Virus record (IMG/VR): IMGVR_UViG_3300014202_000313 | Location: 1-38,058 of that record | Length of the DNA stretch: 38,058 bases | Strand: one strand, 5' to 3' | Source: a virus | Shown here: in pieces, positions 21,360-22,509 of the stretch | Position numbering within the stretch: the stretch's first letter is position 1 | How the letters are laid out: every line of letters begins with the position of its first letter | Program-made: the position numbers and the translations under genes | The notes under the pieces: generated by a model | Seen by the model: only the letters and a program-made list of their open reading frames with translations | Databases searched by the model: none | Told to the model about the DNA's origin: nothing

Positions 21360-21396
21360 AGTTTGTATCTATCTTTCCAATCGATAGATACAAACT
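21360..21396 (-). terminator. Perfect 14-bp inverted repeat (agtttgtatctatc / gatagatacaaact, 9-nt loop) closing the GX cassette
   Basis: Read directly. It starts 2 nt after the stop of the 57-aa ORF. There is no strong U-tract, so it could be a terminator, an RNase III site or a stabiliser. Confidence 0.45.
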
Positions 21397-21397
21397 C

Positions 21398-21571
21398 TTA
21401 CTTTTCATACCCCGAATTAATCTCAACCCTCAAAGCAGTCAATTGAAACTGCAATGTTCTAATCCTTTCTTCAAACACCATCTTCACATGGGAATAAAAT
21501 ACAATTCCCATAATGCTAGCAGCTACAGCACCACCGACAAATCCAGCTATTAATACATCAATTTCACTCAT
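21398..21571 (-). CDS. Small membrane protein (57 aa; one TM plus an amphipathic helix); not in the ORF track
   Basis: MSEIDVLIAGFVGGAVAASIMGIVFYSHVKMVFEERIRTLQFQLTALRVEINSGYEK. Its ATG overlaps the upstream TGA (ATGA). Confidence 0.55.
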   Translation of the reverse strand: MSEIDVLIAGFVGGAVAASIMGIVFYSHVKMVFEERIRTLQFQLTALRVEINSGYEK

Positions 21572-21696
21572 CTCGCTCTCATCAAATCCACTATATCTGC
21601 CAACAATTGCTCGGTTATCGCTTCAATCTGTTCTGGCATCAGCCCGGAAGACACCAGGTTGCTTTTTATTGTTTGTTTTAGCTTTTCAATGTCCAT
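21568..21696 (-). CDS. Small helical protein (42 aa); not in the ORF track
   Basis: MDIEKLKQTIKSNLVSSGLMPEQIEAITEQLLADIVDLMRAR. AGGAAC lies upstream of the ATG at 21696. Confidence 0.5.
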   Translation of the reverse strand: MDIEKLKQTIKSNLVSSGLMPEQIEAITEQLLADIVDLMRAR

Positions 21697-21717
21697 ATTG
21701 GTTCCTATATTTGGTGA

Positions 21718-21966
21718 TTATCCGGAGCCTGATCCGGAGCCGTCGCCGTCGCCGCAACCGTAGCCGTCGCCGGAGCCGCAACCGTAGCCGTCGCCGCAAC
21801 CGTAGCCGTCGCCGCAACCGTAGCCGTAGCCGGAGCCAGAGCCGTAGCCGTAGCCGTAGCCGTAGCCGGAGCCAGAGCCGTAGCCGTAGCCGTAGCCGTA
21901 GCCGGAGCCAGAGCCGGAGCCGGAGCCGGAGCCGGAGCCGGAGCCGTTTTTTGTTATTGACCCCAT
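21718..21966 (-). CDS. Gly-X dipeptide-repeat protein (82 aa; X = Ser/Tyr/Cys/Asp)
   Basis: MGSITKN followed by strict G-X alternation to the C-terminus. The ATG and TAA bracket the repeat tract exactly. Synonymous variants (TCC/TCT/TCA Ser; GGC/GGT Gly) are silent only in this frame. Confidence 0.6.
   Translation of the reverse strand: MGSITKNGSGSGSGSGSGSGSGYGYGYGYGSGSGYGYGYGYGSGSGYGYGCGDGYGCGDGYGCGSGDGYGCGDGDGSGSGSG
21721..21945. repeat. GC-rich tandem hexamer array (GCC-NNN)n with higher-order 36-bp and 18-bp units
   Basis: On the plus strand every second triplet is gcc (with a few acc). Units are gccggagccagagccgtagccgtagccgtagccgtagcc x2 and gtcgccgcaaccgtagcc x3. All six frames are open. 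Confidence 0.9.
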
Positions 21967-22301
21967 ATTGCGACGCTCTCAATTGATTTTTTTGCTTTTT
22001 CAGAAACATTTAATATTTCGATAGCATTTAATAATTCAACACGACTAACAGCACATGGAAATTTACAGTTTTCTGGTTTCGATGTTCCCTCCATGGCAAG
22101 CTGAGATAAAGATGCCGCACCATCCCAATACCACAATCTTCTAGCATTTTTCATTACGATTGATTCAGCACTCCTGGAATCAATATACCCAGCAAAAACG
22201 CCAGCAGAATAAGTCCGAACAATCACATAATCAGAAATTTTTGATTCATCAATATCTGATTTCTTAATATAAGTTTCGCCATTTATTTCTATTTCATTCA
22301 T
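21954..22301 (-). CDS. Conserved-looking phage early protein of unknown function (115 aa), translationally coupled to the GX gene
   Basis: VIVRTYSAGVFAGYI...ARRLWYWDGAASLSQLAMEG is a motif I recognise from early regions of other phages, but I do not recall a family name. Its last 13 nt overlap the GX start. Confidence 0.65.
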   Translation of the reverse strand: MNEIEINGETYIKKSDIDESKISDYVIVRTYSAGVFAGYIDSRSAESIVMKNARRLWYWDGAASLSQLAMEGTSKPENCKFPCAVSRVELLNAIEILNVSEKAKKSIESVAIWGQ

Positions 22302-22509
22302 TTTTATTTTCCTATATTAGGGACCTATTTCACCACTTTTGCATTTATTTAAATGCCCATCTTTCTCTCTAAATTAAGTTGACAATAGGCGTGAATTGCA
22401 CACGCTATCATGATTATGAGGTGTCATGATTGGTTTTTGATGCCACTAGAAAGCATCCTCACATCGTTTCCCCAGAATGCCACTGTCCATTCAGCTATTG
22501 TCATATTAT

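Follow-up and report, generated by a model that had tools for sequence, protein, structure and literature searches.

A conserved pair of early phage genes encoding a DUF6948 protein and a Gly-X dipeptide polymer

The 38,058-nt DNA of IMG/VR virus record IMGVR_UViG_3300014202_000313 (the window, meaning this whole stretch) is a nearly complete phage genome of ~38 kb. Its minus-strand early operon (18.4-24.7 kb) contains a pair of genes, the first encoding a 115-amino-acid (aa) protein of the Pfam family DUF6948 and the second, which overlaps the first, encoding an 82-aa (Gly-X)n polymer. An earlier note on this DNA had grouped these two open reading frames (ORFs) with two smaller ones, encoding a 42-aa peptide and a 57-aa protein with one transmembrane segment, into a four-gene module bounded by a 208-nt gap (22302-22509) and a perfect hairpin. 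The gap, the four ORFs, their overlaps and the hairpin all lie on the minus strand where the note had placed them, and the gap is the largest of the operon. The module itself holds for the 115-aa protein and the polymer and is not supported for the two smaller genes: the conserved unit consists of two genes, DUF6948 and the overlapping (Gly-X)n gene, not four. We consider the pair very probably a real, functionally linked protein module. The best overall explanation, to which we give a probability of about 0.5, is that it is an early phage module acting as a complex of a small barrel and a detachable tail. Coordinates are collected in Table 1.

Table 1. Positions of the genes and elements discussed, in window coordinates
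Feature	Position	Strand	Evidence or remark
DUF6948 protein, 115 aa, first gene of the pair	21954-22301	-	Pfam PF22253, E = 3e-30
(Gly-X)n polymer protein, 82 aa, second gene of the pair	21718-21966	-	
Hexanucleotide tandem repeat encoding the polymer	21734-21947		Tandem Repeats Finder (TRF): period 6, 35.7 copies, 81% matches
Acidic ORF, 42 aa, lineage-specific	21568-21696	-	Conserved in L001, L002, L275, L276 and L278 only
ORF with one N-terminal hydrophobic helix, 57 aa	21398-21571	-	Conserved in L001, L002, L275 and L276
Perfect inverted repeat	21360-21373 and 21383-21396	-	14-nt arms, 9-nt loop, 15 bp as folded
Structured intergenic repeat element, ~130 nt	22378-22506	-	Covariation; fills most of the 208-nt spacer
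SSB-like protein, 180 aa	22510-23052	-	PHROG 9002 single-strand DNA binding protein, E = 6.9e-8
HNH homing endonuclease, free-standing	23084-23620	-	
HNH/AP2 homing endonuclease, free-standing	20609-21322	-	PHROG 99, E = 2.2e-26, and AP2 match
Endolysin gene	17285-17947		
O-like replication initiator	26579-27529		
Terminase gene	30340-31884		
Portal gene	31829-34063		
tRNA gene, the sole one in the window	34713-34788	+	Rfam tRNA, 54.8 bits

The linkage of the two genes was followed in both directions. In the forward direction, the dataset comprises 66 IMG/VR loci with DUF6948 relatives at 44-76% identity, 60 of them with enough downstream DNA, and 80 loci from bacterial genomes and metagenome-assembled genomes (MAGs) of many phyla, 71 of them evaluable. 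A (Gly-X)n ORF comes directly after the DUF6948 gene in 58 of the 60 viral loci, and the pair is present in 67 of the 71 genome or MAG loci. In the reverse direction, Gly-X loci were picked from viral contigs solely by their match to a degenerate DNA pattern for GYGDGSGYGDG. A DUF6948-superfamily gene lies directly upstream on the same strand in 97 of the 101 evaluable Gly-X loci, as judged with hidden Markov models (HMMs) of three subfamilies; the narrower HMM of the close relatives alone gives 77 of 99. Co-occurrence exceeds 94% both ways, across the three subfamilies. The Gly-rich ORF, expected in the earlier note to accompany homologs of the 115-aa protein, nearly always follows them, and therefore the soluble protein and the polymer can be regarded as one functional module.

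All-against-all clustering of the flanking ORFs of 151 loci (+/-4 kb) revealed no third conserved gene. The most common neighbors encode SSB (17 loci), Sak4/AAA-like proteins (13), exonucleases (10), RecT-like proteins (7-8) and ERF-like proteins (5). The lack of a third conserved gene suggests that the pair travels alone within recombination and replication early regions. Cultured phages with the pair include Pectobacterium phage Koroua and its relatives, Ralstonia phage NK-7, Iodobacter phage phiPLPE, Chlorobiaceae phage CV-1-33, the Rheinheimera Barba phages and Rhodobacter phage RcapNL. Phages and prophages carrying it are assigned to Proteobacteria, Firmicutes, Bacteroidota, Acidobacteria, Planctomycetes, the candidate phyla radiation (CPR), Chlamydiae, Spirochaetes and Cyanobacteria. 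A blastn search of E. coli returned no homolog, the plasmids gave one match only, and the GenBank phages contain no match to the region at near-identity of the DNA.

It could be argued that all four genes form a lineage-specific cassette, which in this clade tethers the pair to the membrane. The four ORFs are indeed collinear and tightly coupled in the window, by a 13-nt overlap within the pair and an ATGA overlap joining the 57-aa ORF to the 42-aa ORF, and they are also collinear in L001, L002, L275, L276 and L278, down to 70% DUF6948 identity. However, synteny among close relatives is expected from descent alone. The two small genes are real and conserved, but in the nearest clade alone (L001, L002, L275-L278); they are missing outside it, and the survey of flanking ORFs offers no third conserved gene. 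Nor are small transmembrane ORFs enriched downstream of the pair (32 of 108 loci, versus 33 of 129 upstream), contrary to the idea that a small membrane protein regularly follows. The proposed boundaries are not conserved either. The spacer measures 22 nt in L001, 208 nt in the window and 410 nt in L275 and L276; the hairpin is missing from the relatives, where homology stops at the stop codon of the 57-aa gene. A membrane-tethered cassette is thus very unlikely, and we place both small genes, together with the spacer element and the hairpin, outside the module as local features. Scans of the four proteins against PHROGs, NCBIfam and PADLOC gave nothing useful, and Pfam gave DUF6948 only; the 42-aa ORF has no family match in any of these scans, and the family matches of the 57-aa ORF are weak and sub-threshold.

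The polymer of the window reads MGSITKN, followed by 37 G-X dipeptides and a terminal Gly, with X being S, Y, D or C, and its predicted isoelectric point (pI) is 4.05. The underlying repeat has the consensus CCGTAG on the plus strand, that is, GGC-TAC/TCC/GAC on the coding strand, and a GC content of 62-67%, compared with 24-42% in flanking windows. An ORF across such a hexanucleotide repeat is not significant alone, because two other frames are also open. What is beyond chance is that the Gly-X frame is kept beside DUF6948 in several hundred independent loci. It is the sole reading conserved across loci; the others vary from locus to locus (A-M, T-V/P-V, R-L, E-T etc.).

The composition of the polymer is tightly constrained. 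In 193 distinct cores, Gly accounts for 49.5% of residues, Ser for 17%, Tyr for 16% and Asp for 12.6%, and each other residue for less than 1.5% (Ala 0.3%, Cys 0.5%, Lys and Arg almost absent), so that X is approximately one third Ser, one third Tyr and one quarter Asp. Asp outnumbers Glu about 60 to 1, although Glu is only one mutation away from Asp, and 98% of the cores are net negative. This composition is the same in all three subfamilies and across locus GC contents of 0.28-0.64. The Gly-X alternation is perfect (median 100% of the core; period 2), and no shared higher-order period was found among these cores. Neighboring X residues tend to be mixed, with observed-to-expected ratios of 1.47 for Y followed by D, 1.33 for D followed by S, 1.21 for S followed by Y and 0.66 for D-D. 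Mixed neighbors and the lack of a higher-order period favor a disordered or loosely self-associating polymer over a solenoid fold.

Could the repeat instead act as DNA or RNA, for example as an iteron array, a recombination hot spot or a G-rich structure, with the Gly-X ORF as a by-product? It is a GC-rich tandem array within an AT-rich replication and recombination operon, several of its frames are open, and the array expands and contracts. However, its nucleotide unit is not fixed. Across loci, Gly is encoded by GGC 1443 times, GGT 456 times, GGA 242 times and GGG 17 times, and the codons are nearly uniform within one array and different between arrays, giving distinct GGC, GGT and GGA arrays that also differ in their X codons. 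Conserved instead are the Gly-X reading, the position of the start codon and the Ser/Tyr/Asp composition; moreover, indels keep the frame, and there are in-frame fusions to conserved globular domains. This possibility is largely refuted, and we give it almost no weight. On the evidence of these sequences, the Gly-X polymer is selected as a protein for its Ser/Tyr/Asp composition.

Gly-X proteins range from 40 to 180 aa and begin with a hydrophilic N-terminus of 5-15 aa. Their length shifts in 6-nt (dipeptide) steps with the frame kept. Among 115 Barba isolates the polymer gene measures 210, 216 or 240 nt between constant flanks, and contigs with an identical DUF6948 protein (P0002) carry polymers of 64 and 88 aa, although short-read assembly of repeats may distort such lengths. 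In 27 of 208 Gly-X ORFs, the reading frame continues into one of two globular C-terminal domains. The fusion family of one of these domains has 1,787 members, and the 91 proteins that could be parsed among its best 120 matches (71-100% identity to the query C-domain) have Gly-X parts of 24-112 aa in 48 different lengths, mostly separated by 2-aa steps. P0153 is a natural DUF6948-(Gly-X) fusion in a single ORF.

Several further observations concern the arrangement of Gly-X genes. One fused C-domain, a conserved one with 1,787 homologs, is ~155-159 aa long, and the Gly-X tract joins it to a short N-terminal leader (MSALDEKVKAFLSV...); this leader-Gly-X-C-domain architecture is present in L154, L156, L163, L169, L171, L173, L175 and others (proteins P0271-P0390). 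A second, unrelated C-domain of ~110 aa occurs in the high-GC phages L193, L195, L217, L181, L162 and L266. The fused C-domains have no Pfam, PHROG or PDB match, and the 1,787-member family carries no names. Some phages have two or three tandem Gly-X genes, or one on each side of DUF6948 (L002 3731-4000, L128, L059 4258-4885, L062 4276-4855, L176), and in L238 a DUF6948-like gene lies 3' of two Gly-X genes. The polymer gene is at times skipped by metagenomic gene calls (L276).

The two genes of the window overlap by 13 nt, with the polymer in the -1 frame; its ATG takes the A from the end of an Ile codon and the TG from the Trp codon conserved at the C-terminus of DUF6948. The same overlap is found in ~80% of the IMG/VR loci with a polymer gene, with ATG and sometimes GTG as the start codon. 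The overlapping start is consistent with translational coupling of the two genes. The -1 frame, the widespread overlap and the existence of single-ORF fusions such as P0153 also raise the question of whether -1 ribosomal frameshifting in the overlap yields one DUF6948-(Gly-X) product, similar to the phage tail chaperones G/GT. However, a start codon, ATG or GTG, is kept at a conserved position, and the overlap contains no conserved slippery heptamer (X XXY YYZ). Furthermore, the two genes of NK-7, Barba and RcapNL do not overlap but are separated by gaps of 4-9 nt, and therefore initiation of the polymer must be independent there. A frameshift product is highly improbable.

The partner protein contains RRLWYWDGAASLSQLAMEG and matches PF22253 with 104.6 bits (gathering score 27) over profile positions 2-85 of 85. 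The family is large, with more than 8000 clusters at 90% identity and 2,439 at 50% identity (E <= 1e-3). It has three subfamilies, whose homology is supported by hhalign probabilities of 95-97% and by Pfam: the type of the window, a second type also recognized as DUF6948 by Pfam (E = 2e-22), and a remote third type in the Rheinheimera Barba phages and Rhodobacter phage RcapNL (hhalign 95%, E = 3.8e-8, with a sub-threshold Pfam match). An antisense ORF of ~80 aa inside the DUF6948 gene clusters across 81 of the 151 loci (for example, L069 1893-2138) and is not present in the window; it is probably a by-product of conserved sense codons.

An AlphaFold2 model of the DUF6948 protein, built from a 48-sequence alignment, has a predicted local distance difference test score (pLDDT) of 89.5. 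It consists of an N-terminal beta-hairpin (residues 3-12), five strands in the barrel region (residues 25-98) of a small, bent barrel protein of ~90 residues, a short helix within an insertion, and a C-terminal helix. The insertion, at approximately residues 57-83 between strands 3 and 4, holds most of the invariant residues and includes RRLWYW..GAASLSQLA..G..P..CKFP. Among the best 50 Foldseek matches listed for the PDB, almost all are Sm/LSm chains; the best have target-normalized template-modeling (TM) scores of 0.65-0.70, root-mean-square deviations (rmsd) of ~2.1 A and E values of ~0.01 (for 1i5l, E = 0.012, TM 0.65, rmsd 2.1 A). In a viral structure library, the strong matches are other DUF6948 proteins only. 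The model shows the five strongly bent antiparallel strands typical of Sm/LSm/Hfq proteins. However, it opens with a beta-hairpin in place of the N-terminal alpha-helix, Sm1/Sm2 sequence motifs and Pfam LSM or Hfq matches are absent, and a profile search of PDB sequences with DUF6948 returned no Sm protein, only chance matches. According to the model, the fold is an Sm-like bent barrel; because the N-terminal helix and the sequence motifs are missing, we do not assign the protein to the Sm family itself.

Under the explanation that we favor, the two products would act as one complex early in infection, in which the barrel, possibly as an oligomer, would be the folded core and the polymer its detachable, acidic, Tyr-rich and disordered tail. 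Comparable arrangements are the acidic tail of Hfq, the Gly-Arg tails of Sm proteins, and the Gly-rich linker of SSB that leads to an acidic-aromatic tip. We rate mutual binding of the two proteins as somewhat better than an even bet. Function would be set by the bulk composition of the polymer and not by its exact length or order. In RNA sequencing of Barba18A, gp018 (the barrel) and gp017 (the polymer) belong, like the replication genes, to the first temporal cluster (PMC9305737, Table S2).

Several points weigh against this explanation. The function, interaction and oligomeric state of the pair are putative, and the polymer product is a predicted one, the RNA data showing transcription alone and in a distant relative. 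AlphaFold2 modeling of the concatenated DUF6948 and polymer from a single sequence gave a pLDDT of only 35.7. Two IMG/VR loci, L057 and L058, carry DUF6948 with a repeat remnant only, and therefore the barrel can persist alone. The Sm-like assignment leans on a weak Foldseek E value (~0.01) with no Sm helix or motifs, and small beta-barrels look alike. Finally, DUF6948 proteins are near neutral overall (median pI 6.3), which provides no evident electrostatic basis for strong binding of an acidic polymer or of nucleic acid.

What such a complex might do can be approached from its likely valence. Sm-fold proteins usually form rings and the polymer holds many identical short motifs, and therefore the pair would be multivalent; multivalence in turn favors a higher-order assembly or a mimic of single-stranded DNA (ssDNA) or of the SSB tail. 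Two roles seem to us the most likely. First, the pair may self-associate into a condensate, gel or fibril around phage DNA metabolism. The synthetic peptide GYGYGYG forms thioflavin T (ThT)-positive, amyloid-like fibrils in vitro (PMC10510724). Second, the pair may mimic ssDNA or the SSB tail and engage DNA-binding proteins early in infection. Acidic-aromatic SSB tails compete with ssDNA. These roles are not exclusive, and each of them is tentative, being possible rather than probable. A more specific version, in which a ring-forming Sm-like barrel would multivalently bind the hypervariable polymer and give a condensate or nucleic-acid-mimicking matrix that organizes or protects phage DNA replication and recombination, is doubtful.

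A different function for the pair would be host takeover or anti-defense. The polymer could serve as a decoy or jam for a host enzyme (for example, a Gly-rich 'slippery' tract stalling AAA+ proteases) or as a sponge for nucleases or sensors, and DUF6948 as its chaperone or folded stop. The early operon with its accessory genes and homing endonucleases, the early expression, the tolerance of any polymer length and the architecture of a folded domain plus a Gly-rich tract all fit such a device, and the very broad host range fits a target common to all bacteria. However, the PADLOC models gave no match at E <= 0.1 for the four proteins and two neighbors, no anti-defense family was matched, and no link to any defense system was seen. 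Furthermore, a patchy distribution is the usual one for anti-defense genes, whereas the conservation of this pair is deep, with three old subfamilies. We therefore regard this as unlikely.

A comparison with known systems may place the barrel-and-tail complex in context. Gly-rich tails are known from the Sm/LSm/Hfq proteins: SmB, D1 and D3 have Gly-Arg repeats, Hfq has an acidic C-terminal tail, and Acinetobacter Hfq has a Gly-rich tail. The phage pair resembles them in combining a small bent five-stranded barrel with a low-complexity, Gly-rich dipeptide-type tail that can be fused to it (P0153). It differs in that DUF6948 has no sequence similarity to these proteins, no Sm1/Sm2 motifs and a long insertion between strands 3 and 4, and in that the phage tail is normally a separate polypeptide, acidic, Tyr-rich rather than Arg-rich, and strictly alternating. 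SSB proteins consist of an oligonucleotide/oligosaccharide-binding (OB) fold, a Gly-rich disordered linker and an acidic-aromatic tip (DDDIPF), and the acidic tail of T7 gp2.5 mimics ssDNA. Here too a small-barrel protein is joined by a Gly-rich, disordered, acidic-aromatic segment, and the pair adjoins genes for SSB and annealing proteins; however, its fold is Sm-like and not OB, and the polymer offers dozens of Asp and Tyr residues in place of one terminal tip.

Other parallels concern the polymer alone. Gly dipeptide polymers of viral or repeat-derived origin include the EBNA1 Gly-Ala repeat and C9orf72 poly-GA/GR/GP. They share with the phage polymer a short GC-rich tandem DNA repeat, a length variable among isolates and an action through bulk properties, but have other X residues; the phage polymer, being neither part of a larger protein nor a pathological product, is encoded separately, from a start codon of its own and beside a conserved partner gene. 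Like the low-complexity (LC) domain of FUS, with its [G/S]Y[G/S] motifs, and the GYGYGYG peptide (PMC10510724), it is dominated by Gly, Ser and Tyr and has many GYG motifs, with Tyr tending to be interspersed rather than clustered. Unlike prion-like domains, it has a strict period of 2, no Gln or Asn and ~13% Asp, and is very short, free-standing and equipped with a dedicated partner gene. The likeness to the silk fibroin heavy chain (GAGAGS/GAGAGY), in Gly-X periodicity and in Ser or Tyr at X, is compositional only, since the polymer is almost free of Ala, rich in Asp, 40-180 aa long instead of thousands, and the product of a cytoplasmic early gene; with 0.3% Ala, a hydrophilic N-terminus of 5-15 aa, no signal peptide or terminal domains and no Pfam match, it was rejected as a member of that family. 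Collagen-like (G-X-Y)n and RTX (GGXGXDXUX) repeats need a period of 3 or 9, compared with 2 here. The precursor of a ribosomally synthesized and post-translationally modified peptide (RiPP), such as microcin B17 and other thiazole/oxazole-modified microcins (TOMM), was also rejected: no maturation-enzyme family neighbors the gene, the 151 loci have no third conserved gene, and Cys makes up only 0.5% of residues.

Full-text literature searches found nothing on the DUF6948 family or on its pairing with a Gly-X polymer. Already known are DUF6948, as an unannotated Pfam family, and the polymer, under scattered and fanciful GenBank names. Examples of misleading names are 'lamprin' (MW202613) and 'fibroin heavy chain-like protein' (PP919442), the name borne by the NK-7 homolog; in CV-1-33 (MT192033) gene 25 the polymer is annotated in the wrong frame as MAMAMA, and in phiPLPE (EU876853) the polymer gene is unannotated between gp84 and gp83. 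None of the known systems compared matches the pair, which we regard as a conserved phage module of a new kind. For a bacterial virus, a strictly alternating Gly-X protein, selected for Ser, Tyr and Asp and accompanied by a dedicated folded partner, is an unusual gene product. Should it prove to assemble or to mimic nucleic acid, phase separation or molecular mimicry during phage replication could be approached by experiment, and a natural, tunable Gly-Tyr polymer would be available as well. If the doubtful matrix of ring-shaped barrels and polymer were to exist, it would be a bacterial-virus counterpart of the LSm/low-complexity scaffolds of ribonucleoprotein (RNP) granules, present in phages of most bacterial phyla. 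Since the culture systems of Koroua and its relatives, NK-7, Barba and RcapNL carry the pair, these ideas can be tested directly.

The spacer upstream of the pair contains an element of its own. It has a closing stem P1 (GACAATAGC/GCCTATTGTC), a hairpin P2, a variable center and a hairpin P3, and the different spacer lengths in L001, in the window and in L275 and L276 result from 0, 1 or 2 copies of it. Pairing holds in 97.5% of the cells of a nine-copy alignment (A7), and compensatory changes occur in 7 of its 18 pairs. Covariation scores 0.404, compared with 0.144 for shuffles, none of 500 attaining the observed value, and with no more than 0.13 for shifted pairings. The P2 and P3 hairpins were outside the search pattern and therefore support the element independently. 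With a covariance model, the window copy, itself a training sequence, obtains 89.8 bits, and an independent match in L012/L014/L054 obtains 63.7 bits; further copies were found only in this phage group. The pattern scan returned 22 matches, most of them due to chance and ~7 homologous. In other phages, copies occupy other intergenic places, and in L012 they flank the pair on both sides. Additional copies are in L275 (2706-2839 and 2908-2999), L279, L281, L282, L288, L299, L300 and L012 (2224-2366). The element is therefore an independent intergenic repeat, not a module boundary. It has no Rfam match, and it could be a processing or antitermination RNA, a small RNA (sRNA), a repeat resembling miniature inverted-repeat transposable elements (MITEs) or an ssDNA signal. 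The spacer as a whole folds no better than shuffles (z = -0.77). A plain promoter region was rejected, as the promoter scan found no sigma-70-like site there.

The hairpin at the other end is AT-rich and lies in the 75-nt gap before the HNH-AP2 gene. Its RNA fold has an energy of -20.3 kcal/mol (z = -4.26), a stability that none of 200 shuffles attains. It is absent from L275, L276 and L001. An intrinsic terminator was rejected, given the AT-rich stem, the lack of a U-run, the 3' flank UUGUAGACAAAUAUAAUGG and the absence of the site from the terminator scan; a repeated regulatory site was rejected because the hairpin occurs once in the window. The best promoter-like site of the region (21344-21371, minus strand; TAGATA-16-TATAAT, 10/12 matches) overlaps its 3' arm. 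The hairpin may regulate the HNH-AP2 gene instead of ending the upstream genes.

In the direction of transcription, the operon encodes a 132-aa protein, a Sak4-like annealing protein, an HNH endonuclease, the SSB-like protein, the four ORFs discussed above, the HNH-AP2 homing endonuclease, a 166-aa protein and an SNF2-type helicase. The 180-aa SSB-like protein has no Pfam match and only a weak PHROG match to SSB. Its C-terminus, DLIGDIPF, is an acidic-aromatic tip typical of SSB, and the homologs of relatives end in ...DDIPF or ...GIPF. The two HNH homing-endonuclease genes flank the SSB-like gene and the four ORFs, one on each side in the same operon, and the presence and neighbors of such genes differ among near relatives. 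L276 has a C-terminal remnant only of the HNH-AP2 gene, and in L275 an extra 67-aa ORF precedes it. Elsewhere in the window, the tRNA gene lies shortly downstream of the portal gene, amid the head and packaging genes.

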